Made by a program: the position numbers and the translations under genes
Assembly (NCBI GenBank): GCA_025924215.1
Contig: JAICEJ010000001.1
Location: forward strand, 1 to 40,989
Direction: 5' to 3'
DNA length: 40,989 bases
Origin: Candidatus Binatia bacterium
GTDB taxonomy: Bacteria > Desulfobacterota > Binatia > UBA9968
Shown: positions 8,798 through 37,597 of the stretch, piece after piece
How positions within the stretch are numbered: position 1 is the first letter of the stretch
Layout of the letters: each line of letters opens with the position of its first letter
Notes under the pieces: generated by a model
Databases searched by the model: none
Told to the model about the DNA's origin: nothing
Seen by the model: only the letters and a program-made list of their open reading frames with translations

Positions 8798-9268
8798 TTA
8801 TCGAGCAAGCTGGCGCAGTACGTTTACCATCTCAATGGCAGTTAGAGCGGCTTCATATCCTTTGTTCGCATCCTTCACTCCGGAGCGTTCCATGGCCTGT
8901 TGCACGTTGTCGGTTGTCAGGACGCCGAAACTGATCGGGATGCGGTATTCCCAAACAGCCTTGCTAATTCCATGAGTTACAGCATCGCAGACATACTCGA
9001 AATGCGGCGTATCGCCTCGGATCACGGCACCGAGACACACGAGCGCATCAAATTTTCCGCTGGCTGACATCCTTGCCGCGACGATGGGAATTTCAAACGC
9101 TCCCGGCACATGAATTACCGTCAGATCGTCATCCGCGCCGCCATGAGTCTTCAGACCTTCCAATGCGCCTTCGAGAAGCTTGACCGTAATAAAATTATTG
9201 AATCGGCTGACAATGACGCCGATTTTCATGCCGCGCGCATCAATGGTGCCTTCGATGACTTTTGCCAT
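8798..9268 (-). CDS. ribH: 6,7-dimethyl-8-ribityllumazine synthase
   Basis: 156 aa with KIGVIVSRFNNFITVKLLEGALEGL...HVPGAFEIP...LGAVIRGDTPHFEYV. Confidence 0.95.
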   Translation of the reverse strand: MAKVIEGTIDARGMKIGVIVSRFNNFITVKLLEGALEGLKTHGGADDDLTVIHVPGAFEIPIVAARMSASGKFDALVCLGAVIRGDTPHFEYVCDAVTHGISKAVWEYRIPISFGVLTTDNVQQAMERSGVKDANKGYEAALTAIEMVNVLRQLAR

Positions 9269-9278
9269 AAACGTCGGG

Positions 9279-10505
9279 TTAAGATTTGGCTGGTTTCGCT
9301 TCCAGATTGGTTAGCAAGTGGCCGAGTTTTTTTTGCTTGGTGCGCAGGTAATGAATATTGGTGTCACGTGGCGATACTTCGAGAGGAACTCTTTCTTTGA
9401 CCCTCACCCCGTACTCTTCGATACCAGAAATCTTTCGCGGGTTGTTGGTCAACAGGCGAACGCTTTTCACCCCCAGATCCCGCAGCATCTGAGCCGCGAT
9501 TCCATAGTCCCGGAGATCTTCTTTGAACCCTAGTTCCAGATTGGCCTCGACCGTATCAAAGCCCCGATCCTGCAACGCATATGCTTTAATCTTGTTGGTG
9601 AGGCCGATGCCACGACCCTCTTGATGCATATAAACGAGTACGCCTTTGCCAGCCTGATCAATGAGCCTGAGCGATTGGCGGATCTGGTCGCCACAGTCGC
9701 AGCGCTCTGAGCCGAAAACATCTCCAGTCAAGCATTCCGAATGCAAACGCACCAGGACGCTGTCAGGGTTGCTGATATCCCCCTTAACCAGCGCCATATG
9801 CTCGGAAGCATCCACTTCGTTTCGATAAACGATAGCCTTGTACATGCCGCCATGGATTGTCGGAAAGATCTCCTCGGCGGCTCGTTTCACCAAACTTTCA
9901 TTGCGTAAACGATAAGCGATCAGCCGGGTCACGGCCACGACTTTTATTCCCAGCCGCTCCGCGAGCTGTTCCAGATCCGGCAACAATGCCACAGCACCGT
10001 CATCGTTGAGTATGTGGCAGATCACCCCTGCAGGGGTAAATCCGCATAAGCGCGCTAAGTCGATCGAAGCTTCCGCTCGTCCCGAGCGTGCGAGTACTCC
10101 CCCGGAGCGCGCCTGGATCGGCTGGATATGTCCCGGGACGATTAAGTCCGCATGTTTTGCTTGATCGGCGACAGCGACTTGAATCGTATGCGCGCGCCCC
10201 TTGGCGGAGACCGCGGGCACACCTTCAAGACGCGCGGAAAAGGCCGCTCCGAACAGATGCCCGGAGAAGTTGCTGCTCTCATGCGGAATCAGCAGAATGC
10301 CCAGCTGGCGAATTCGCTCGTCGGTGAGTGCCAGATAAATGACCCCTCTGCCGTGGTGCAGCATCTGATTGATTATGTCGGCGTTGACCTTCTCGGCCGG
10401 AACGCAAAAAAACCCGTCGCTGTCTGCAGCCTCCTCATTGACGAGAATAATCATCCGCCCCTGGCGAAGGTCCTCGAGGGCTTCATCAATACTGGAGATG
10501 GGCAT
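9279..10505 (-). CDS. ribBA: Bifunctional 3,4-dihydroxy-2-butanone-4-phosphate synthase / GTP cyclohydrolase II
   Basis: 408 aa. The N-terminal half is DHBP synthase-like. The C-terminal half has LVRLHSECLTGDVFGSERCDCG...YMHQEGRGIGL. Confidence 0.95.
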   Translation of the reverse strand: MPISSIDEALEDLRQGRMIILVNEEAADSDGFFCVPAEKVNADIINQMLHHGRGVIYLALTDERIRQLGILLIPHESSNFSGHLFGAAFSARLEGVPAVSAKGRAHTIQVAVADQAKHADLIVPGHIQPIQARSGGVLARSGRAEASIDLARLCGFTPAGVICHILNDDGAVALLPDLEQLAERLGIKVVAVTRLIAYRLRNESLVKRAAEEIFPTIHGGMYKAIVYRNEVDASEHMALVKGDISNPDSVLVRLHSECLTGDVFGSERCDCGDQIRQSLRLIDQAGKGVLVYMHQEGRGIGLTNKIKAYALQDRGFDTVEANLELGFKEDLRDYGIAAQMLRDLGVKSVRLLTNNPRKISGIEEYGVRVKERVPLEVSPRDTNIHYLRTKQKKLGHLLTNLEAKPAKS

Positions 10506-19123: not shown

Positions 19124-20014
19124 TTGAACGGCCATCTCGGCTTGATCCATGCCATCATTCCCGCAACAGTAGACATCCGCGTGTCGATCCCAGAAGACCA
19201 TCCGTCCACCAGGAACCTAGGGTCGGAGCGCACCGGATCCGGAACCATAGTCGATCCGGAAGGGTACATTTTAACGGTTAATTACGTGGTGACCGGAGCT
19301 TCGTCCATTACCGTCACCGTGGCCGAAGGAGAAGAGTATCCGGGTGAGATCGTTACACAGGATCTCGATAGCGGACTCGCGCTTTTAAAAATCCCTGCGC
19401 GCGGGCTGCCTTTCCTCAAACCGGCAACCGAACCGGCCGCACTTGGCCAGGCTAGCCTGATCGTTGCCAGCAGCGGAAACAACGAACGAAAAGTGAGCGG
19501 AGGCTATGTAACTTCACTGGAACCGTATGACGGCCATTGGGAATACATGCTCGATGAAACGGTGAGAGTGACAGCCGTCAATCCGGGCTTCGGCGGCGGT
19601 ACATTGGCAAATTTCAAAGCAGAGATGTTGGGCGTGGTTTCCCTGAATCTTGCGGACGTTGGAAAATTCTCATTGGCCATTCCGATCCGCTATTACCTTG
19701 ATCAGGAGCAGGCGTTCAAACAACGTTCCCTGGTCAGTCAAAAGCCTTGGTTAGGTTTTTATCCCCACTTGCTCGCCGGACATGTGGTTGTCGGCGGAGT
19801 GACGGAAGGGAGCCCGGCTGATCGTCAGGGACTTAAAGAGGGCGACATCATTCTGGATGTTGAGAAAACGCAAATCCGCTCGCGGCGGCAACTCTATCAG
19901 GAGCTTTGGAAGAAGCGACCGGGGGAACGCATTTGTCTGCGTGTCTTAAGAAACGAAACCAGTATCGAGCTAAACTTAATCGGCGCCGACCGCCGCAATC
20001 GTTATGGCAGCTAG
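19124..20014 (+). CDS. HtrA/DegP-like trypsin-fold protein with one PDZ domain. The catalytic triad is substituted, so it is predicted to be inactive. No signal peptide.
   Basis: TTG at 19124 lies 7 nt after AAGGAG. The sequence GSGTIVDPEGYILTVNYVV, DSGLALLKI and NPGFGGGTL aligns by eye to DegP GSGVII..GYVVTNNHVV, RSDIALIQI and NRGNSGGAL. The C-terminal PDZ reads GVTEGSPADRQGLKEGDIILDV. Confidence 0.75.
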   Translation: MNGHLGLIHAIIPATVDIRVSIPEDHPSTRNLGSERTGSGTIVDPEGYILTVNYVVTGASSITVTVAEGEEYPGEIVTQDLDSGLALLKIPARGLPFLKPATEPAALGQASLIVASSGNNERKVSGGYVTSLEPYDGHWEYMLDETVRVTAVNPGFGGGTLANFKAEMLGVVSLNLADVGKFSLAIPIRYYLDQEQAFKQRSLVSQKPWLGFYPHLLAGHVVVGGVTEGSPADRQGLKEGDIILDVEKTQIRSRRQLYQELWKKRPGERICLRVLRNETSIELNLIGADRRNRYGS

Positions 20015-20478
20015 TCGTCGCCACCGACCTTCTGTAATTTACCTTGTCCAGTCACCTTGATGGCGGTTGCCGGAGTATAGGCTTCGGGTTCATAGTTGAT
20101 CAAGGCTTTATCGCTCTGCTGCAAATCTTTTAATTTGACTCTGCTGCCGGCTTTTTCGATATTCGTTTTGTCATCGACTCCAACCACCTCCTCGCGAACC
20201 TTTCCCTTGCGCTCTACTTGGAAGGTAATCGTTCGCTGGCCAACGCTGCTGATGACACCCTCAACTTCGACAGCTTTGGACTTGGTTTGTTTTGTTTCGC
20301 CCTTTGTGGCTTTTGCCTCTGCGAGCGGCTTTGCTTCGGCGACAGGTTGGGCCTGCGCCGGTGTCGGTTTTTGCGCGGGTGCGGCCGTTTGTTCCTGAAC
20401 AGATGAACACGCGATTAAACCGGCAGCGAGCAGGAGTGAGCCCGTTGATAACGTCAAGAAATCAGTTGTTCGTTTCAT
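20011..20478 (-). CDS. Hypothetical lipoprotein
   Basis: ATG at 20478 follows GGAGGAATGAA. MKRTTDFLTLSTGSLLLAAGLIA|C carries the lipobox, followed by a Pro/Ala/Lys-rich linker and a small beta-rich domain. The longest ORF extends to 20556. Confidence 0.55.
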   Translation of the reverse strand: MKRTTDFLTLSTGSLLLAAGLIACSSVQEQTAAPAQKPTPAQAQPVAEAKPLAEAKATKGETKQTKSKAVEVEGVISSVGQRTITFQVERKGKVREEVVGVDDKTNIEKAGSRVKLKDLQQSDKALINYEPEAYTPATAIKVTGQGKLQKVGGDD

Positions 20479-20628
20479 TTCATTCCTCCGAACTCTTTTA
20501 CTCGCAATTCCGAAATATGATCGCGCAAAAATTGTAGAACTTAAAGCATACTTCATTTCAAATTGTCAAGGCGCGTCGGGAACCATGGCGTTGAGAAAAG
20601 CTCCAAAACAACATACGGGTGAGAGCGC

Positions 20629-22330: not shown

Positions 22331-22780
22331 TCAGTGAAGCGGACCGCCGCCGCTCGATCCGGTGACAGTGGGGTCCAACAATGGGCGTCTGCCGGCAAAG
22401 CCGTCCTCAATTCTGTGCCAGTAGGCAATCTCAGGTTCGCCGTATTGCCAACAAAGAAAGACAATCTCTTCTCCCAATAAACAGGGAAAATCGAGCAATC
22501 CTTGTTCCACGCCTTTGCACACGCAGCCATGTTGTTGAATCTCATTGACAGCGTCGTTGATCTGCTTGATCAAGGCTGCGATCTCATCGTTCTGCTGTAA
22601 ACGCCGCATCAGGTTGGGCGTTTCCGGGTCGATCTGCTCCGCGCGAATCACTATTTCGCTCTTGGCCCGCAGGCGCCGTATGATCTCCAGAATGCGTTCG
22701 ATCGTCGGACGTACTATGGGCAAAAGGGTGTTCGCTTCGTTGATCGTGAACAATCTCGAATAAGGCGAAGATGAATCCAT
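22331..22780 (-). CDS. Hypothetical protein, DUF2203-like (family recalled from memory)
   Basis: 149 aa. N-terminal FTINEANTLLPIVRPTIERILEI and a helical middle region. It is co-directional with the REC-LpxC gene, 39 nt downstream. Confidence 0.5.
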   Translation of the reverse strand: MDSSSPYSRLFTINEANTLLPIVRPTIERILEIIRRLRAKSEIVIRAEQIDPETPNLMRRLQQNDEIAALIKQINDAVNEIQQHGCVCKGVEQGLLDFPCLLGEEIVFLCWQYGEPEIAYWHRIEDGFAGRRPLLDPTVTGSSGGGPLH

Positions 22781-22819: not shown

Positions 22820-24139
22820 TTATAGCCCCAGGCCGGATCGAACAGCTCTCAGTAATGCAATGTTATCGGAATGGCCGGTCATGTGAGCCGTGATTTTGCC
22901 GCGGATGGGTCTTCCCAGCAGATAAAAATCCCCGATAATGTCAAGAATTTTATGACGCGCCAGCTCCTCCGGAAAGCGCAAGTCCGTGTTTACAATCTTC
23001 TCATCATCGATCAAGATACAATTACTAAGCTTGCCTCCGTTGATCAAGCCGAGCTTTTGCATTTTCTCCATATCGCGCAAAAAACCGAAGGTCCTTGCCG
23101 GCGCAATTTCTTCTTTGAAGGAAGTCGGGCTCTGATGTTCGAATATGTATTCCTGCACGCCCACCGGTTTCGGATACTTCAGAACGTAGTGAACCGAAAA
23201 CGTCTTCGCTGGTTCAATACTAATCCATTCTCCTCCGTCGTCACCGATCCGATAAGGACGATCAATGACGATTCTTGACCAGCTTTCGTCTTGCTCGTGC
23301 AGCCCAGCTTCCTCGATGAGTTCGCAAAACTCCGCCGCCGATCCATCCAAGATCGGAACTTCGCCTTGAACTTTCACCAGCAAATTCGTAATTCCGTAAC
23401 TATGGAGGACCGCCAAAAAATGCTCTACGGTCGCAACCGTAAAACCGCGATGGCTCAATGAGGTCGCGAATCCCGTTGATCCGACATAATCTAAATGCGC
23501 GGGTACGCTGACATCGCCCGAGATACCCTCGAATAAGATGCCGCTATTTGGCGGTAGCGGATGCAGGATCAATCCTGTTTTAATACCTGAATGCAAACCC
23601 TGACCCGAACTCACCACGCTCTTTCTTAAAGTTTTTTGTCGGATCGGTTCGGCGGATGTGACAATCCGCGGAGCTATACTCACTGAGTCCGACTCCTCGG
23701 CCCCATGACGTTGGCCGATTTCGGACAGGCTCTGAGCCACAGGGAGCTCGCCCAGGGCGCGTTGCACCGTATGTAGCAGGCCGTCGAGCGAGACCGGCTT
23801 TTCGATAAAATCGAAAGCGCCAAATTTAGTTGCGGTCACCGCCGTGTGGATATTTCCGTGCCCGGAGATCATCACTACATTGGTTGAAGGCTTCTTGCTC
23901 TTGATCTCCTTGAGCAACCCAATACCATCGATTTTTGGCATCCAGATGTCGAGCAGCACAAGCCCCGGTTGCTCTGCTTCGATCATTTCCAGGACGCAAG
24001 TGGCATCCGCGGTATCGAGTACGCGATATCCCTCGTCCGTCAGCACTTCTTTAACCGATTCCCGAACCTTGTCCTCATCATCGACAACAAGGATGGTTTT
24101 CTGAGATGATAACTCCTTCACCGCCCCTCCATTTTTCAT
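22820..24139 (-). CDS. lpxC: Fusion protein: N-terminal response-regulator receiver (REC) domain plus C-terminal UDP-3-O-acyl-N-acetylglucosamine deacetylase (LpxC) domain
   Basis: Single uninterrupted 439-aa ORF. REC covers about residues 16-130: VVDDE, LLDIWMP (Asp64, nt 23950-23948), MISGHG, FIEKP. After a roughly 35-aa linker, the LpxC domain runs from IRQKTLRKSVVSSGQGLHSG. It contains TVEHF, ARTFGFLRD, ARHKILDIIGDF and TGHSDN, which align with E. coli E78/H79, T191, H238/K239/D242/D246 and H265. Confidence 0.85.
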   Translation of the reverse strand: MKNGGAVKELSSQKTILVVDDEDKVRESVKEVLTDEGYRVLDTADATCVLEMIEAEQPGLVLLDIWMPKIDGIGLLKEIKSKKPSTNVVMISGHGNIHTAVTATKFGAFDFIEKPVSLDGLLHTVQRALGELPVAQSLSEIGQRHGAEESDSVSIAPRIVTSAEPIRQKTLRKSVVSSGQGLHSGIKTGLILHPLPPNSGILFEGISGDVSVPAHLDYVGSTGFATSLSHRGFTVATVEHFLAVLHSYGITNLLVKVQGEVPILDGSAAEFCELIEEAGLHEQDESWSRIVIDRPYRIGDDGGEWISIEPAKTFSVHYVLKYPKPVGVQEYIFEHQSPTSFKEEIAPARTFGFLRDMEKMQKLGLINGGKLSNCILIDDEKIVNTDLRFPEELARHKILDIIGDFYLLGRPIRGKITAHMTGHSDNIALLRAVRSGLGL

Positions 24140-26370
24140 AGCTGCGCAGCCTTCCTTTTAAACTCGCGTAGCGCGCCCTGCTCGCGCACCGGAAACTCTA
24201 TCACGAACCTGGTGCCGCGCGGTTCGTTGTTCCGCACCCGAATATAACCGCGATGATCTTCGACAATTTGATTGACGATGGTGAGCCCTAGGCCGGTACC
24301 CTGTTTTTTAGTAGAAAATCCAGGCTCGAATATTCTAACTCGAGCTTCCGCCGCCATGCCACAACCATCGTCGGCAACTTCAAGGTAGACCGTGTTCCGA
24401 GTGCGATCATAGGCAGTCGCTATCTGCACATGGCCGCCGCCGCCAACGGCGGCCACGGCGTTGTCTAATAAGTTGATCATCACCCGTTTGATTTGCTCGC
24501 GATCGAGCTCCAGCGCCGGCAACTCTCCCTGCCGGAACTCAAAATCGATATGGTTATGTCCTTCCTTAAACAGGAATAGCGCGTCCTGAACAATCACGTT
24601 TAGGTCGTTGAGCACCGGCTGAGCCGTAGGTAATCTTGCGAATTGCGAAAACTCATTGACCAGATTCTTGAGCTCGACCACCTGCTGGATAATCGTCGTC
24701 GTGCATTTGTCCAGTACCGCGCCGTCCCCTTGCAACAGCTTAGCATAGCGTTTGCGAAGTCTCTCGGCCGAGAGCTGTATCGGCGTGAGCGGATTTTTGA
24801 TTTCGTGCGCGATTCGCCGCGCCACTTCGCGCCACGCTTCCATCCTCTGTACTTTTTGAATCTGGGTAATGTCTTCGAGAAAAATCATGATACCTAGGCT
24901 GTCATTAGCATCATCTCTGAGGGTAGCGGCGGTAGCGAATACGGTAAGGAGATGGTCCGGTAGCTGTATCTGCAATTCAGTCTCGCTGCTTTCGCGATCT
25001 TTGAGGTTGTCTATCAAGTCGCGCATGACCATTAGCGACTCGGTTTCAAACGCTTCCCTGTAGTATTTTCCGAGAGCAGCAGAACCGTCCACACCTAGCA
25101 TTTGTTCGGCCGCCTTGTTCCAAGAAGTGATCTTCCCGTTCGGATCGACAGCAATCACTCCTGCGGTAATATTAGCGAGAAGTGTTTCAACGAACTTGCC
25201 GCGGCGCAACAATTCCAGGTTGCTCTTCTTTAAGTCTCGGGTCATCTGGTTGAATGACTCAACCAAGGTTCCTAACTCGTCATCGCCGGCCGCCTCAATT
25301 TGATAATCCCAGTTGCCATGAGCGACTTCGTGAGTCCCCGCTGCCACCTGTTGAATCGGGATCGTGATTCCTTTGGCAAGATAAAGGCCGAACCAAGTCG
25401 CGGCAAAGATAATCACAAGGGTAATTAGTAGCAGGGTCAGAATGTAACTGTTTTTCACCGGGTTCTTCAGAAAACCAAGGTGCTTGTACTGCTCATACGA
25501 CCGGGAGATTTCAAGCGCGCGTTTAGTAATGCTCTTCGGCACGTAATAATCGACTACGACGACTCCCTGAATCCGCTTGCCGCTGTCATAGATCGGAACA
25601 CCCCCGCGAATAACGTCGCCCTCGCCAAAAGCCTGAGTTCGGGTGACTTCCAGGCCGCGCAGCGCCCGGTTAAGGAAATCGGCTTCAGCCTTGATGCTAA
25701 CTCCAGTGGGTACCTGGTCATTGAAAGCCACTACTACCGGCTGGTGATCTGGTGAAAATAATTCCACAGTTCCGAGATTGTACTCACGCTGCTTGATCTG
25801 GATAAATTCTTTAAGATCGCTTCGCCGTCCGGTCTCGAACAGCCCCTGTTCAGTGACGCGGCGGCTTAGCTGCCGTGCATAGAAGAGCGCATTGTTTGCC
25901 GAGTTTTGATAATAGGTCTGGCCGATTTCCAACGATCCCTGGAGGGCGGTCTCAACCTGTATATCGAACCATCTTTCAAAGGAGCGAGTGACAAATCCGC
26001 CAGCGATGACGAAGAGCAACAGGGTCGGAACAAGCGACAAACCGACAAATGCGATCACCAGGCGAACCCGTAGCCGTGAACCGAGGATGCCGCGTTTGCG
26101 TTCGAAAACCAGCTTCACCAGGTTTCTGACGACCAGAAAAACCAGGAGAATCAGAAGAATAATGTTGATGTTGATTAAGAGAAAGAAAACTATGTTATTG
26201 CTGAGAGAATATTCCGACGAAACATCGGGAAGCTGCACCTCGAAGAATGCGAACGCAAGCACCACCAGTGAAGTGATGAGAATCGCCAGCCCTTCACGCT
26301 TTCGCCGTTTAGTTTCATCCAACGTGGGCGTGTCGCTGATCTGCTGTTGCGTTTTGGAGGTTTTGCCCAT
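24136..26370 (-). CDS. ntrY: NtrY-type membrane sensor histidine kinase (TM segments, extracytoplasmic domain, HAMP, PAS, HisKA, HATPase_c)
   Basis: 744 aa. Hydrophobic segments flank a roughly 190-aa loop. The HAMP region reads AKGITIPIQQVAAGTHEVAHGNWDYQIE...FNQMTRDL and the PAS region reads ITAGVIAVDPNGKITSWNKAAEQMLG. The H-box is RIAHEIKNPLTPIQLSAERL. The N/G boxes are LLDNAV, DDGCGM and GTGLGL. Its stop overlaps the REC-LpxC start (ATGA at 24139-24136). Confidence 0.85.
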   Translation of the reverse strand: MGKTSKTQQQISDTPTLDETKRRKREGLAILITSLVVLAFAFFEVQLPDVSSEYSLSNNIVFFLLININIILLILLVFLVVRNLVKLVFERKRGILGSRLRVRLVIAFVGLSLVPTLLLFVIAGGFVTRSFERWFDIQVETALQGSLEIGQTYYQNSANNALFYARQLSRRVTEQGLFETGRRSDLKEFIQIKQREYNLGTVELFSPDHQPVVVAFNDQVPTGVSIKAEADFLNRALRGLEVTRTQAFGEGDVIRGGVPIYDSGKRIQGVVVVDYYVPKSITKRALEISRSYEQYKHLGFLKNPVKNSYILTLLLITLVIIFAATWFGLYLAKGITIPIQQVAAGTHEVAHGNWDYQIEAAGDDELGTLVESFNQMTRDLKKSNLELLRRGKFVETLLANITAGVIAVDPNGKITSWNKAAEQMLGVDGSAALGKYYREAFETESLMVMRDLIDNLKDRESSETELQIQLPDHLLTVFATAATLRDDANDSLGIMIFLEDITQIQKVQRMEAWREVARRIAHEIKNPLTPIQLSAERLRKRYAKLLQGDGAVLDKCTTTIIQQVVELKNLVNEFSQFARLPTAQPVLNDLNVIVQDALFLFKEGHNHIDFEFRQGELPALELDREQIKRVMINLLDNAVAAVGGGGHVQIATAYDRTRNTVYLEVADDGCGMAAEARVRIFEPGFSTKKQGTGLGLTIVNQIVEDHRGYIRVRNNEPRGTRFVIEFPVREQGALREFKRKAAQL

Positions 26371-26404: not shown

Positions 26405-26617
26405 TTATCTCCTAAAGAGATAGAGAACAAGGCTGATGAGGATGCTGATAACAATGCACGTGGTGATTGGAAAGTAAAAACTGAAGCGACCTCGCTGGAC
26501 GTAGATATCACCCGGTAAATGCCCGAGCCAAGGGATTTTTCCACCCAATGTAAACAGTACTCCGACGGCAACGGTTACGATCCCCAGAATGATCAAAGTT
26601 CTACCGAACTCAGGCAT
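26405..26617 (-). CDS. Small membrane protein, DUF2905-like
   Basis: 70 aa with two TM helices and the motif LPGDIYVQRGRFSFYFPITT. The family name is recalled from memory. Confidence 0.6.
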   Translation of the reverse strand: MPEFGRTLIILGIVTVAVGVLFTLGGKIPWLGHLPGDIYVQRGRFSFYFPITTCIVISILISLVLYLFRR

Positions 26618-35231: not shown

Positions 35232-35645
35232 TGACTGCTCCTTGTATCTATAACGGAACCTAGGGGAGTCGTCCTATTTTGTAGCTAGCCCGACATCATA
35301 AAGCAACAGGAAGGTTGACAGTTGAGCGGTCCGGAGAAAACCCGAGCTATACGCATCACGGGGCTGCCGCGGCGGGAAAATCTTTTTAAACCTTTATCAA
35401 GTGCCACTTAGGACAGATTAGCCGCCTGGCTCACCCACCGGGAGATGCTGTCTTACGGATTGCCGGCAATTAGTACACCATTTCGCTGGAAACGCGTGAG
35501 AACCGAACCGGAGTGCAATCAGGCTAGAAGCTGCTGACTTTGGAAAGATCAGCGGACAGTTAGCAGAATACGAATAGACTGTTATCGGCAACTCCACTCC
35601 TCTGTTCGAACCTGCTATGCTCAATCATCATTGAACGGAGGACTT

Positions 35646-36458
35646 ATGAACGCATCGTATTTCGCGCGATTATTAATATTGTGTATGTGCATCGCCCTGG
35701 TCGGCGCTTCCGCGGCGGCACAAGCGCAGCCGGCGAAAAGCTATGAGCCCCAGGTCGGCCAAGAAGGTAAGGATGTCGTCTGGGTGCCAACGCCTCAGGC
35801 TCTGGTAGACAAGATGCTCGATATGGCAAAAGTAACCCCTAAAGACTTCGTCATCGATCTGGGTTCGGGTGATGGGCGCACTGTAATTACGGCAGCTAAA
35901 CGCGGCGCCAAGGCTCACGGCATCGAATACAATCCGGACATGGTCGAGCTCGCCAAGCGCAATGCCGCCAAAGAAGGCGTCAGCGATCGAGCCACCTTTG
36001 CTAAAGCGGACTTGTTCGAAAGCGATTTCTCGCAAGCTCAGGTGATCACGATGTTTCTCCTGTCGAGCATCAACATGAAGCTCCGCCCTAAGATTCTCGA
36101 TCTCAAACCGGGAACGCGCATCGTTTCGAATACTTTCGATATGGGAGAATGGAAGGCGGATGAAACGGGCAGGGCCGATAATTGCAACGGTTATTGTACG
36201 GCTTACCTGTGGATCGTGCCGGCGAAGGTAGACGGAACGTGGAAGCTGCCCAACGGTGAGCTGACGCTTAAACAAACCTTTCAGATGATCAGCGGCACTC
36301 TAAAATCTGGCAACGTCGTCACACCGGTCAACGGCAAACTAAACGGCGAGGAGATTAGTTTCACTGCCGGTGAGGGACAATACAACGGACGGGTTAACGG
36401 CAACTCGATGGACGGATCGCTAAAATCCGGCGGCAAATGGAGCGCCACGAAGCGGTGA
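35646..36458 (+). CDS. Class I SAM-dependent methyltransferase with a cleavable-looking Sec signal peptide (paralog 1)
   Basis: ATG at 35646 follows GGAGGA. MNASYFARLLILCMCIALVGASAAAQA|QP is the signal peptide. SAM motif I is VIDLGSGDGRTVITAAKRGAKAHGIEYNP. A roughly 75-aa Gly/Asn-rich beta-type C-terminal extension follows. Confidence 0.75.
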   Translation: MNASYFARLLILCMCIALVGASAAAQAQPAKSYEPQVGQEGKDVVWVPTPQALVDKMLDMAKVTPKDFVIDLGSGDGRTVITAAKRGAKAHGIEYNPDMVELAKRNAAKEGVSDRATFAKADLFESDFSQAQVITMFLLSSINMKLRPKILDLKPGTRIVSNTFDMGEWKADETGRADNCNGYCTAYLWIVPAKVDGTWKLPNGELTLKQTFQMISGTLKSGNVVTPVNGKLNGEEISFTAGEGQYNGRVNGNSMDGSLKSGGKWSATKR

Positions 36459-37582
36459 ATCGTGACCAGAAATCCTCGAGTAAATCAATTCCGCTGACGC
36501 CGACTTCAAGCACCGCATTCTGCTTATCGCTCCAGGTTTGTAGCCGCGCGCGCATCTCAACAGCTCACAAAAACTATGGCCCAAGTCTTTTGACTTGGGC
36601 CATAGTTTCTCTGCTCCTTGGGGGAATGAAAAAAAACCCATCCAACTTCTTGGCACCGCCTAGGAGCGCCAAGCTATCCTGCGCTTCCTTCCTGGACAAT
36701 TGCGCATCGCTAAGGTATGGAGATCGTTTGTCTGCTCTATTCACCGGTCGATACTGTCAGTATCACCGCTCTGGGAGGATTAGAATGATTGTATCGCGTT
36801 TAACTAGCAGTTTATCATTGGCGCTTAGCCTTTCTCTGATTACCGCAATCGGATTTGCCCAGCCGGCAAAGCAATACGAACCGCAGGTCGGCCAAGAAGG
36901 CAAGGATGTCGTCTGGGTGCCAACGCCTCAGGCTCTGGTCGAAAAAATGCTCGACATGGCAAAAGTAACCGCCAAAGATTATGTCATCGATTTGGGTTCG
37001 GGTGATGGCCGCACTGTAATTACGGCAGCTAAACGCGGCGCCAAGGCTCACGGCATCGAATACAATCCGGACATGGTCGAGCTGGCCAAGCGCAATGCCG
37101 CCAAAGAGGGCGTCAGCGATCGAGCCACCTTTGCTAAAGCGGACTTGTTCGAAAGCGATTTCTCGCAAGCTCAGGTAATCACCATGTTCCTCCTGCCCAG
37201 TATCAATCTCAAACTTCGTCCCAAGATCCTCGATTTAAAACCGGGCACGCGCATTGTATCGAATTCTTTTGATATGGAAGAATGGAAGCCTGACGAAACC
37301 GCCAACGCGGAAGGATGCAGCAACTGGTGCACAGCCTACCTTTGGATCGTGCCGGCGAAAGTAAACGGGACGTGGAAGCTGCCTAATGGCGAGCTGACGC
37401 TCAAACAAACCTTTCAGATGATCAGCGGCACTCTAAAATCTGGCAACGTCGTCACACCGGTCAACGGCAAACTAAATGGCGAGGAGATTAGTTTCACTGC
37501 CGGCGAGGGACAATACAACGGGCGGGTTAACGGCAACTCGATGGACGGATCGCTAAAATCCGGCGGCAAATGGAGCGCTACG
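35727..37582 (+). repeat. Tandem direct duplication: 723-bp units at 35727-36449 and 36860-37582 (period 1133 bp)
   Basis: Hand alignment shows identical runs of about 70 nt or more, for example cgcactgtaattacggcagctaaacgcggcgccaaggctcacggcatcgaatacaatccggacatggtcgagct in both copies. Similarity starts exactly at the codons for the mature N-terminus (QPAK) and ends at ...KWSAT. Confidence 0.9.
36571..36608 (+). terminator. Perfect 17-bp-stem hairpin between the two methyltransferase genes (probable terminator)
   Basis: aaactatggcccaagtc / tttt / gacttgggccatagttt, followed by CTCTGCT. The stem is flanked by an A-run and a T-run, so it could act on either strand. Confidence 0.5.
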
Positions 37583-37597
37583 CGGGCTGGGAGGTAA
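36785..37597 (+). CDS. Class I SAM-dependent methyltransferase with a Sec signal peptide (paralog 2)
   Basis: ATG at 36785 follows GGGAGGA. MIVSRLTSSLSLALSLSLITAIGFA|QP is the signal peptide. The mature part is nearly identical to paralog 1. The 116-codon upstream extension in the ORF track crosses the hairpin and is rejected. Confidence 0.75.
   Translation: MIVSRLTSSLSLALSLSLITAIGFAQPAKQYEPQVGQEGKDVVWVPTPQALVEKMLDMAKVTAKDYVIDLGSGDGRTVITAAKRGAKAHGIEYNPDMVELAKRNAAKEGVSDRATFAKADLFESDFSQAQVITMFLLPSINLKLRPKILDLKPGTRIVSNSFDMEEWKPDETANAEGCSNWCTAYLWIVPAKVNGTWKLPNGELTLKQTFQMISGTLKSGNVVTPVNGKLNGEEISFTAGEGQYNGRVNGNSMDGSLKSGGKWSATRAGR

Follow-up and report, generated by a model that had tools for sequence, protein, structure and literature searches.

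The window, by which we mean the whole stretch of 40,989 nucleotides (41 kb) of Candidatus Binatia DNA that was analysed, carries on its minus strand an open reading frame (ORF) in which a response-regulator receiver (REC) is joined through a linker to LpxC, the UDP-3-O-acyl-GlcNAc deacetylase, and which lies directly behind the gene of an NtrY-type sensor histidine kinase. The features of the locus are the following:

22331..22780, minus strand: DUF2203 protein (Pfam PF09969), 39 nt downstream of the REC-LpxC ORF
22820..24139, minus strand: REC-linker-LpxC ORF, 439 aa (433 aa if started at GTG 24121)
22841..23638, minus strand: LpxC domain, residues 168-433 (PF03331, TIGR00325)
23645..23749, minus strand: hypervariable linker of about 35 residues (approximately 131-165), predicted to be disordered
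23765..24094, minus strand: NtrX-like receiver domain, residues 16-125 (Pfam PF00072, 106.3 bits)
24136..26370, minus strand: NtrY-type sensor histidine kinase, 744 aa, with NtrY_N membrane/periplasmic region, HAMP, PAS, HisKA and HATPase_c (Pfam)
26405..26617, minus strand: small membrane protein of the DUF2905 type, separated from the downstream kinase by 34 nt (Pfam label assigned in L001, one of the fused loci compared)

The fused ORF is uninterrupted over its 439 codons, whereas the plus-strand frame over the same interval contains many stops. It has two candidate starts: the ATG at 24139 shares 4 nt (ATGA) with the end of the kinase gene, while the GTG at 24121 is preceded by GGAGG and coincides with the start of many orthologues, so the start codon is ambiguous. 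A fused ORF was present in all of the 120 best protein clusters (72-100% identity, mostly Candidatus Binatia), which were drawn from NCBI, ENA, JGI and Logan assemblies, as well as in 14 species-level genomes, and it lies on many independent contigs of up to 2.3 Mb. Scans for sigma70 promoters and terminators around the operon did not rise above the shuffle level.

The receiver was recognised by Response_reg (PF00072) at residues 16-125 with an E value of 1e-30 and 106.3 bits against a cutoff of 30.2, and it carries the acidic pair D20/D21, the phospho-acceptor D64 (LLDIWMP; codon 23948-23950), S92 (MISGHG) and K114 (IEKP). The domain is near-invariant across Binatia, and the residues just listed are fully invariant there; among 45 divergent fused representatives the acidic pair is retained and the acceptor Asp is found in 42 (it is replaced by N, S or a gap in the other 3), S/T92 in 45 and K114 in 44. 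The domain, predicted at pLDDT 80-97, has Brucella NtrX (5m7n and 4d6x) as its best PDB relatives, and its sequence is 50-57% identical to the receivers of NtrYX loci. The NCBIfam NtrX model (NF051870) matched only over profile positions 3-136, i.e., its N terminus, and scored 131.6 bits (cutoff, 600), and Pfam detected neither a Sigma54_activat nor an HTH_8 domain, so that the protein lacks the full REC-AAA+-HTH architecture of NtrX. The receiver is of the NtrX type and is paired with an NtrY-type kinase.

The LpxC domain is complete. PF03331 aligned to residues 168-433 over profile positions 1-266 of 268 (E value 7e-83, 278.7 bits, cutoff 27), and the lpxC equivalog model TIGR00325 scored 254.6 bits against a cutoff of 187.25. 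In a HMMER alignment to Pseudomonas aeruginosa LpxC, residues E239/H240 (TVEHF), T350 (ARTFGF), H396-K397-D400-D404 (RHKILDIIGD) and H423 (TGHS) map to E77/H78, T190, H237/K238/D241/D245 and H264; the zinc ligands H240, H396 and D400 are therefore the equivalents of P. aeruginosa H78, H237 and D241 (E. coli His79, His238 and Asp242), while E239, H423, T350, K397 and D404, aligned and conserved, correspond to E. coli Glu78, His265, Thr191, Lys239 and Asp246. All zinc ligands and catalytic residues are kept in 45/45 divergent fused representatives; that the domain is an active deacetylase is inferred from sequence alone. AlphaFold predicts the two-domain beta-alpha-alpha-beta LpxC fold, with pLDDT above 90 over most of residues 165-438, and a Foldseek search with this model returned the Aquifex, Pseudomonas and E. 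coli enzymes at target TM-scores of 0.85-0.96 and rmsd of 1.4-2.0 A, Aquifex LpxC being the best match (0.96, 1.4 A). The sequence alignment stops at approximately residue 276-280 of the 300-305-aa enzymes, the ORF ends 6 residues later, and it has no C-terminal tail matching the region of the E. coli FtsH degron.

The first-pass annotation had described one uninterrupted 439-codon ORF joining two complete domains, an NtrC/NtrX-style receiver and an LpxC in which every alignable E. coli residue was retained with identical spacing, and it would have been refuted by a frameshift or stop splitting the ORF into two genes, by misaligned zinc or catalytic residues, or by a fusion that proved to be both common and already characterised. 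The uninterrupted ORF, which we place on the minus strand, and the numbering of the receiver residues (D20/D21, D64, S92, K114) were right; the suggested HMMER search confirmed both domains, with boundaries at 16-125 and 168-433; and the retention of the LpxC residues was borne out by the alignment to the P. aeruginosa enzyme. Identical spacing held in part, being true for the block from H238 to H265 (E. coli numbering), whereas small insertions or deletions interrupt the stretch from the EH motif to T191. No split ORF was found, the fused form being common to 120/120 best clusters, and the profile alignment does not displace the zinc or catalytic residues. How rare the architecture is had been left unresolved: it is common, yet no characterisation was found in the literature searched.

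Between the two domains the linker has no conserved column in the Binatia alignment, falls below pLDDT 50 at residues 134-155 and shows a dN of 0.55 to more than 1, compared with 0.02-0.23 in the flanking domains (dS is saturated, so no proper dN/dS can be given and the dN contrast alone is used). Strong purifying selection acts on the two flanking domains, both of which are intact. Relatives have an AAA+ and/or HTH module where the linker stands, and it is likely that the linker is what remains of that position. The structure prediction that had been suggested gave a pLDDT of 48 when run on a shallow Binatia alignment (at least 72% identity) and was set aside; a deeper alignment resolved both domains as well folded, at a pTM of 0.71 that is compatible with either a fixed or an absent REC-LpxC interface. 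Since the output contained neither PAE nor inter-domain contacts, whether the receiver sits on the active site is undecided.

The kinase is a conserved partner of the fusion. It lies directly upstream in 15 of the 17 fused loci from species-level genomes (L001-L013, L016 and L031), and the same kinase family precedes every other fused architecture examined, making four lineages in all; that it is the phosphodonor of the fused receiver is presumed. DUF2905 is kept upstream of the kinase in the Binatia loci and also occurs upstream of lpxC-HK-RR clusters in L019, L070 and L082; it is a conserved neighbour without an assigned role in the system. The DUF2203 gene accompanies the fusion in L001-L009 and is missing from L010-L016, and its membership in the system is uncertain because its conservation does not extend beyond the closer Binatia loci.

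Unfused systems orthologous to this one adjoin stand-alone lpxC genes. About 20 Desulfobacterota loci have the order lpxC, HK, REC-AAA+-HTH, some of them in the same ruvB/DUF2905 neighbourhood, and across these systems the kinase is 38-49% identical over its full length and the receiver 47-55%; in Desulfuromonadales locus L070 the kinase beside stand-alone lpxC is 47% identical over all 744 aa, and the receiver is 52% identical to that of an unfused system beside lpxC. In Desulfovibrio vulgaris, lpxC is the single mapped target of DVU2934 (PMC3333781). All 4 of 4 Desulfuromonadales-type loci have sigma54 -24/-12 sites, placed 30-78 nt ahead of lpxC (expected, 0.026 per interval searched), and with the criteria used none was found upstream of lpxC in Desulfobacterales loci. 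In alphaproteobacteria, NtrYX also influences the amounts of lpxC transcript and of LPS (PMC7240162, PMC12444477); in Rhodobacter sphaeroides the lpxC transcript rises on loss of NtrYX, a sign opposite to that expected from sigma54-activator logic. The physiological signal of NtrYX is debated, and the alphaproteobacterial link to lpxC had been considered indirect.

The fusion is abundant in metagenomes, spans several phyla and is not rare. Related forms (REC-AAA+-(HTH)-LpxC, REC-HTH-LpxC and REC-X-LpxC) occur in Nitrospinota, Candidatus Entotheonellia and "Deltaproteobacteria" metagenome-assembled genomes (MAGs), in which the fusion follows DUF4390 and an NtrY-type kinase; DUF4390 corresponds to PlrP, which has been proposed as a third component in systems of the NtrYX family (PMC13001219). 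These relatives retain between REC and LpxC a decaying NtrX/NtrC-type AAA+/HTH module: P0122 (734 aa) aligns across the whole 456-aa regulator, and 16/16 long fused REC-AAA+-LpxC forms have neither GAFTGA nor the Walker B Glu nor the Arg finger, whereas the unfused regulators from L019 and L070 keep an intact GAFTGA, Walker B Asp-Glu and Arg finger. The fused proteins are currently annotated as "LpxC" or "NtrX" only. We found no description of the REC-LpxC architecture in the literature searched, outside of which most subscription journals fall, nor in two recent reviews of LpxC regulation (PMC13333357, PMC12444477), and it is likely to be uncharacterised.

A neighbor-joining tree groups the fused LpxC domains of several phyla in a single clade (bootstrap 74/100). 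Support for its internal nodes is poor (5/100 for the largest clade made up purely of fused forms), and for this reason we claim no order of domain loss; the tree leaves unresolved whether the short forms lost AAA+ or are older than the long ones. Three stand-alone LpxCs that fell inside the fused clade and might have represented fission products or paralogues were rejected, P0161 and P0197 being fragments on contigs of less than 1 kb and P0167 a frameshifted fusion; P0219 is the only genuine stand-alone LpxC there. With the artefacts removed, an exhaustive search of representatives found no stand-alone LpxC nearer than about 47% identity. Such an artefact, the opposite of a spurious fusion, was encountered in L084, whose noisy, frameshifted assembly makes a fusion resemble a stand-alone LpxC.

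The arrangement could have evolved in three steps: (i) an entire NtrX/NtrC-type regulator of lpxC transcription would have fused to LpxC, (ii) its sigma54 and ATPase functions would have decayed after the fusion, and (iii) the middle module would have been deleted in the Binatia lineage. The outcome would be an NtrX-type regulator with LpxC as its output, with transcriptional control of lpxC giving way to direct control.

Our main reading, to which we assign a probability of roughly 0.6, is that REC-LpxC and its NtrY-type kinase, co-transcribed and translationally coupled with it, constitute a two-component system acting on the LpxC protein and not on the lpxC promoter; the gating itself is inferred. 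The kinase is predicted to have three N-terminal membrane segments, an extracytoplasmic loop of approximately 180 residues and a fourth membrane segment followed by HAMP and PAS, and it would respond to a signal of envelope, periplasmic or redox origin by setting the phosphorylation state of D64, which, through the flexible tether of about 35 residues, would alter LpxC output. The route that we favour is by analogy CheB-like: the unphosphorylated receiver would dock on LpxC and restrain the enzyme, and phosphorylation with dimerisation of the receiver through its alpha4-beta5-alpha5 face would free it, so that an active kinase would mean a higher lipid A flux. LpxC is normally monomeric, and to our knowledge no allosteric site for a receiver is known on it. 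A disordered, hypervariable linker of this length argues against rigid allosteric coupling, which leaves occlusion, dimerisation, partner binding or control of stability. The sign of the effect is no more than a possibility, being inferred solely from the sigma54-activator logic of one unfused subgroup; "phosphorylation = ON" is weakly grounded because the sigma54 sites occur in Desulfuromonadales-type and not in Desulfobacterales loci. The first-pass annotation had predicted direct, phosphorylation-dependent gating of lipid A synthesis, and its statement that LpxC catalyses the committed step and is known to be controlled by proteolysis or transcription agrees with the modes of control so far characterised. 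What could be computed of that prediction held, and the idea is strengthened by the coupled kinase, by the recurrence of the same kinase family in four lineages and by unfused relatives that regulate an adjacent lpxC. No experiment has been done on the fused protein; gating of catalysis rests on sequence and predicted structure, remains an inference, and its direction is not established.

Several alternative explanations have to be weighed against this reading. An assembly or frameshift artefact merging two genes is all but excluded, since the same or nearly the same fused ORF recurs in every one of the best clusters, on many independent contigs and in the species-level genomes, and nothing supports it. 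It is also very unlikely that the receiver is a relic or a structural pseudo-receiver that is never phosphorylated and leaves LpxC constitutive. This view can draw on the 3/45 representatives in which the acceptor Asp is gone and on two fused loci (L014 and L015) without an adjacent kinase; against it stand the acceptor Asp kept here and in the great majority of representatives together with the acidic pair, S/T92 and K114, a receiver dN equal to or below that of LpxC, and a translationally coupled kinase that is kept upstream in all four lineages.

The remaining two alternatives grant the receiver a function, and we consider both unlikely. In the one, the state of D64 would set the amount or location of LpxC, not its catalysis, by marking it for breakdown (by a protease such as FtsH, Lon or ClpXP) or by letting it bind an adaptor or the membrane, and would thereby stand in for the enterobacterial FtsH/LapB/YejM proteolytic circuit. 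Some receivers, such as RssB, are known to serve as adaptors or as switches for degradation; E. coli and further proteobacteria control LpxC by regulated proteolysis (PMC13333357, PMC12444477); the fused protein has no tail at the position of the E. coli degron; and a long disordered linker is no less suited to engaging a protease or recruiting a partner than to occlusion. Conversely, no protease or adaptor gene was found in the neighbourhood, and the linker, being hypervariable, cannot carry a conserved degron; this explanation is moreover compatible with catalytic gating and does not exclude it. In the other, the fused protein would be an accessory, conditional paralogue that merely raises or trims lipid A synthesis when a certain signal is present, with a separate housekeeping lpxC carrying the essential flux. 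The window leaves the rest of the genome out of view, and the clade of fused LpxCs is separate from the stand-alone enzymes of neighbouring phyla, which is what one might see with a specialised paralogue. Yet the fusion occupies the ruvB, DUF2905, HK neighbourhood in which relatives keep their stand-alone lpxC, with a DUF2905-kinase gap of just 34 nt in Binatia; it scores above the lpxC equivalog cutoff; its catalytic residues are fully conserved across phyla at low dN; and the representative search found no closer stand-alone LpxC. A bolder reading, for which the case at present falls a little short, is that the fused protein is the sole LpxC in Binatia, Nitrospinota, Entotheonellia and related uncultured lineages. 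If true, this would amount to a fast mode of control independent of proteolysis, and envelope/LPS homeostasis would be the ancestral role of the long-enigmatic NtrYX family.

To return to the two-component reading, LpxC is essential, controls flux into lipid A and is a major antibiotic target, and it is not known to be controlled in any characterised way other than by proteolysis (FtsH/LapB/YejM, Lon) or transcription. A receiver attached to LpxC and accompanied by an NtrY-type kinase across phyla predicts a third mode, namely direct two-component control of the enzyme. The fused arrangement is widespread and undescribed in the literature searched, and we lean, by inference, toward a membrane sensor that switches lipid A synthesis at the protein level. 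The fusion further serves as a natural "Rosetta stone", tying the NtrYX family to LPS synthesis independently, and the deacetylase activity of fused forms would offer a tractable in vitro read-out of what NtrY-type kinases sense. The series from a sigma54 regulator beside lpxC, through fusions with a decaying AAA+/HTH module, to the bare REC-linker-LpxC is an unusually clear case of circuit collapse from transcriptional to post-translational control, the mode of control being inferred.

Known systems share parts of this design. Natural fusions of LpxC to a second domain exist in LpxC-FabZ (NCBIfam PRK13188, for which REC-LpxC scores 204 bits against a cutoff of 465) and in the "LpxC-FabA" PF03331-PF04977 fusion (bioRxiv 10.1101/2025.10.16.682753), but the partner in LpxC-FabZ is a C-terminal metabolic enzyme, while that in REC-LpxC is an N-terminal signalling domain. 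The methylesterase CheB likewise consists of a receiver, a flexible linker and a hydrolytic enzyme domain, and its unphosphorylated receiver inhibits the enzyme until phosphorylation relieves the inhibition; it differs in its unrelated catalytic fold and pathway, and there is no evidence that REC touches the LpxC active site. The FtsH/LapB(YciM)/YejM(PbgA) circuit has the same purpose, to adjust LpxC activity to the state of the envelope by means of a sensor in the inner membrane (PMC13333357, PMC12444477), but it does so by proteolysis via a C-terminal degron, whereas REC-LpxC lacks the tail and has a phospho-receiver. NtrY/NtrX (PlrS/PlrR) has the same kinase architecture (NtrY_N-HAMP-PAS-HisKA-HATPase_c), the nearest receiver according to solved structures and NCBIfam models, the gene order DUF4390 (PlrP)-NtrY-regulator seen in related fused systems, and existing ties to the envelope, the lpxC transcript and LPS levels; NtrX, however, is a REC-AAA+-HTH protein acting on DNA, and REC-LpxC has neither AAA+ nor HTH and has an enzyme as its output. 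Finally, D. vulgaris DVU2931-DVU2934 and the syntenic Desulfobacterota lpxC-HK-RR(-HD-GYP) clusters share the orthologous kinase and receiver and the tie to lpxC, but they have an intact sigma54 activator (GAFTGA, HTH) that binds the promoter of a separate lpxC gene, whereas in the fusion regulator and enzyme are one polypeptide.

The receiver domain (REC) and LpxC are joined in one ORF, as the first-pass annotation had claimed, and both domains were confirmed by Pfam; the fused gene and its immediate neighbors are arranged as follows.

22820..24139, minus strand: REC-linker-LpxC ORF, 439 codons, uninterrupted (ORF translation)
Residues 16-125 of the fusion: Response_reg domain (Pfam, E 1e-30)
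Residues 168-433 of the fusion: LpxC domain (Pfam, E 7e-83, full profile)
24136..26370, minus strand: NtrY-type histidine kinase, 744 aa, with NtrY_N, HAMP, PAS, HisKA, and HATPase_c (Pfam)
22331-22780, minus strand: DUF2203 protein of unknown function, directly downstream of the fusion
26405-26617, minus strand: DUF2905 membrane protein, 70 aa, before the kinase in Binatia

Each domain satisfies the tests of its own family, deacetylase activity and phosphorylation being inferred. The fusion scores 254.6 bits against TIGR00325, the NCBIfam lpxC equivalog (cutoff, 187), and residue-level alignment to P. aeruginosa LpxC identifies E239/H240, T350, H396/K397/D400/D404, and H423 as zinc ligands and catalytic residues. 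The receiver carries D20/D21 as its acidic pair and D64 as acceptor, along with S92 and K114, and its nearest solved structures are Brucella NtrX 5m7n and 4d6x. The motifs and the NtrC/NtrX-style receiver reported in the first-pass annotation therefore held, but its claim of spacing identical to that of E. coli LpxC held only in part, the spacing not being strictly identical upstream of T191. The structure prediction that it proposed as a check, run with AlphaFold on a deep alignment (mean pLDDT, 89.9), gives confident folds for both domains, with residues 134-155 between them disordered; the LpxC part overlays solved LpxCs (target TM-score as high as 0.96), and no PDB entry spanning both REC and LpxC was found in the structure comparison.

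Both Pfam domains are present in all of the 120 best protein clusters (72 to 100% identity), drawn from NCBI, ENA, JGI, and Logan assemblies with contigs of up to 2.3 Mb; named clusters, from "Deltaproteobacteria bacterium" or "Candidatus Binatia bacterium" MAGs, are labelled solely "UDP-3-O-acyl-GlcNAc deacetylase." The fusion is not rare: a scan of species-representative genomes returned at least 14 full-length fused loci (48 to 85% identity). Within Binatia, REC and LpxC are nearly invariant in the alignment and the ~35-residue linker has zero conserved columns; nonsynonymous divergence is 0.02 to 0.23 in the domains, whereas it reaches 0.55 to >1 in the linker (synonymous sites were saturated in this comparison). 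Both domains are thus intact and constrained, and the tether between them is flexible. One locus (L084, ENA contig_25414) is full of frameshifts, with ruvB, kinase, and REC matches jumping between frames, so that its fused LpxC was miscalled as a 292-aa "stand-alone" LpxC (cluster representative P0167), a caution for architecture counts based on long-read metagenomes. A 2161-nt contig labelled Opitutaceae (L028) carries a Binatia-type kinase (73% identical) and REC (76% identical) that are cut off by the contig end, and is probably a binning contaminant, not a verrucomicrobial fusion.

Translational coupling links the fusion to its conserved partner kinase: the kinase stop codon and the fusion's ATG at 24139 overlap (ATGA). 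A second candidate start, GTG 24121, comes 5 nt after GGAGG, matches the start of many orthologues (432-434 aa), and may be the true one. In the kinase, a ~180-residue loop separates three hydrophobic segments at the N terminus from a fourth ahead of HAMP, a layout that, from sequence alone, could indicate an extracytoplasmic sensor domain. Housekeeping genes surround the pair (yebC-ruvCAB, DUF2905, then kinase, fusion, DUF2203, and queG), with plsX-fabD-fabG, lptE, and murJ farther out in the window, and the order ruvB-DUF2905-kinase-fusion-DUF2203 is kept in other Binatia loci. The DUF2203 gene, possibly co-transcribed with the fusion, adjoins it in the closer Binatia genomes (L001-L009, 51-84% identity) and is missing beside more distant fusions. 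DUF2905 also lies upstream of an ABC1-lpxC-kinase-regulator cluster in Desulfuromonadales-type loci (L019, L070, and L082) and is thus a neighbor conserved across phyla, with no known role. Elsewhere in the window, adjacent overlapping plus-strand ORFs at 35631-36458 and 36437-37597 match the same families (Methyltransf_31, Methyltransf_25, and DOT1-like) and appear to be a tandem pair of SAM-methyltransferase paralogues. A 181-aa minus-strand ORF (20011-20556), adjoined by a gene for a trypsin-like/PDZ-domain serine protease, has no Pfam match but carries a signal resembling that of lipoproteins (…LLAAGLIACSS) and a stretch of low complexity rich in Ala/Pro/Lys/Gln; it is tentatively, on its sequence only, an uncharacterised lipoprotein.

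An exhaustive search over 50%-identity representatives showed that the closest relatives of the window's LpxC domain are fused proteins too, in several architectures.

Architectures of fused LpxC proteins (lineages other than Binatia by source name)
REC-linker-LpxC: ~410-460 aa; includes the Binatia proteins
REC-Sigma54_activat(AAA+)-AAA_lid-LpxC: 650-749 aa; "Deltaproteobacteria" MAGs (IMG label NtrX) and Nitrospinota
REC-HTH_8-LpxC: 491 aa; Ca. Entotheonellia
REC-X-LpxC: 505 aa; Nitrospinota

All contexts examined for fused relatives show DUF4390, an NtrY-type kinase, and then the fusion; DUF4390 is PlrP, which recent work (PMC13001219) puts forward as the third, periplasmic component of NtrYX-family systems. 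When 131 LpxC domains were placed in a neighbor-joining tree, the 51 fused sequences all formed one clade (bootstrap, 74/100), which includes just four apparent stand-alone sequences, one of them genuine. The other three were rejected: two are fragments on contigs of <1 kb, and the third comes from a noisy assembly in which a fusion is frameshifted. Two divergent REC-LpxC fusions (L014 and L015, 48% identity; "Bacterium isolate DEBay..." and "Proteobacteria bacterium C1_MAG_00071") lack an NtrY-type kinase gene within 6 kb upstream, and their receivers may be orphans. In Entotheonellia and Nitrospinota loci, lolA, encoding an outer-membrane lipoprotein chaperone, follows the fused LpxC gene directly or at a short distance (L092, 8182-8847; L085, 10195-10881), with mlaC nearby in L085, suggesting an envelope-biogenesis neighborhood.

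Sigma54 and ATPase determinants were lost after fusion. A long REC-AAA+-LpxC protein (P0122, 734 aa) aligns with an unfused regulator of 456 aa over the regulator's entire length, HTH included, before running on into LpxC. The GAFTGA sigma54-contact loop, Walker B glutamate, and arginine finger are lost in 16/16 long fused sequences and retained in the unfused neighbor regulators. Walker A and the sensor II scaffold survive in the long forms, often together with an HTH remnant, which is visible in the 505-aa and 491-aa forms too. The Binatia clade is nested among long forms in the LpxC tree, which fits loss of the middle module by deletion, with the hypervariable linker as the remainder. Such a deletion is only a possibility, the order of events being unsettled: other short forms branch deeper, and tree support is weak.

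Orthologous systems without the fusion are linked to lpxC. In ~20 Desulfobacterota loci returned by a genome scan with REC-derived patterns, the LpxC part gave the best match; these loci are ordered as stand-alone lpxC, NtrY-like kinase (38-49% full-length identity to the kinase in the window), and complete REC-AAA+-HTH_8 sigma54 regulator (REC 47-55% identical). Several have DUF2905 or ruvB upstream, which places them in the same chromosomal neighborhood as the fusion. With ≤1 mismatch tolerated, sigma54-type -24/-12 elements occur 30-78 nt ahead of lpxC in 4/4 Desulfuromonadales-type loci (background, 0.026 per window scanned); the same search found none upstream of lpxC in the Desulfobacterales group. 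One unfused locus (L070) encodes an HD-GYP-type (HD_5) protein at 9067-10386, behind the regulator; the D. vulgaris DVU2931-2934 operon has this arrangement too, a possible hint of a c-di-GMP branch in the unfused lpxC-linked systems.

We favor, at a probability of about 0.6, the reading that the fusion is a two-component output acting on the LpxC protein via D64. The adjacent kinase would phosphorylate D64, and phosphorylation would alter LpxC output, putatively through CheB-like release from autoinhibition, perhaps along with REC dimerisation, such that kinase activity would raise lipid A flux. This direction is drawn solely from one unfused subgroup, by sigma54-activator logic, and R. sphaeroides NtrYX data have the opposite sign. 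The phosphorylation-dependent gating put forward in the first-pass annotation thus remains an inference, for which supporting context was found in the kinase, the conservation, and the unfused lpxC-linked systems.

An assembly artefact joining two genes, or a frameshift concealing a split, is excluded by the recurrence of both domains across independent assemblies. That the receiver is a pseudo-receiver is very unlikely: among 45 divergent fused sequences, the Asp is kept in 42, the Ser/Thr in 45, and the Lys in 44. Control of LpxC stability or localisation by the receiver is judged unlikely. So is an accessory LpxC paralogue; zinc and catalytic residues are conserved in 45/45 of the same sequences, and there is no second lpxC in the 41-kb window, the rest of the genome being outside the scope.

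Two recent reviews of LpxC/lipid A regulation mention no receiver or fusion on LpxC, and targeted literature searches found no description of the REC-LpxC architecture, which is widespread in databases yet not, in the literature searched, already characterised. The fusion's REC and kinase partner belong to the NtrX/NtrC lineage, but the fusion does not meet that family's definition, as AAA+ and HTH are absent and its score of 131.6 bits falls short of the cutoff of 600. The Desulfobacterota lpxC-linked loci match the D. vulgaris DVU2931-2934 operon in gene set; lpxC is the single mapped target of that operon's DVU2934 regulator and adjoins the orthologous operon in S. fumaroxidans (PMC3333781). 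In alphaproteobacteria, NtrYX loss raises the lpxC transcript 8.8-fold and increases LPS (PMC7240162; summarised in PMC12444477). Enzymes are already known as outputs of response regulators, and so is an influence of NtrYX-type systems on transcription of lpxC; LpxC as a response-regulator output domain, and the evolutionary series leading to it, appear to be undescribed.
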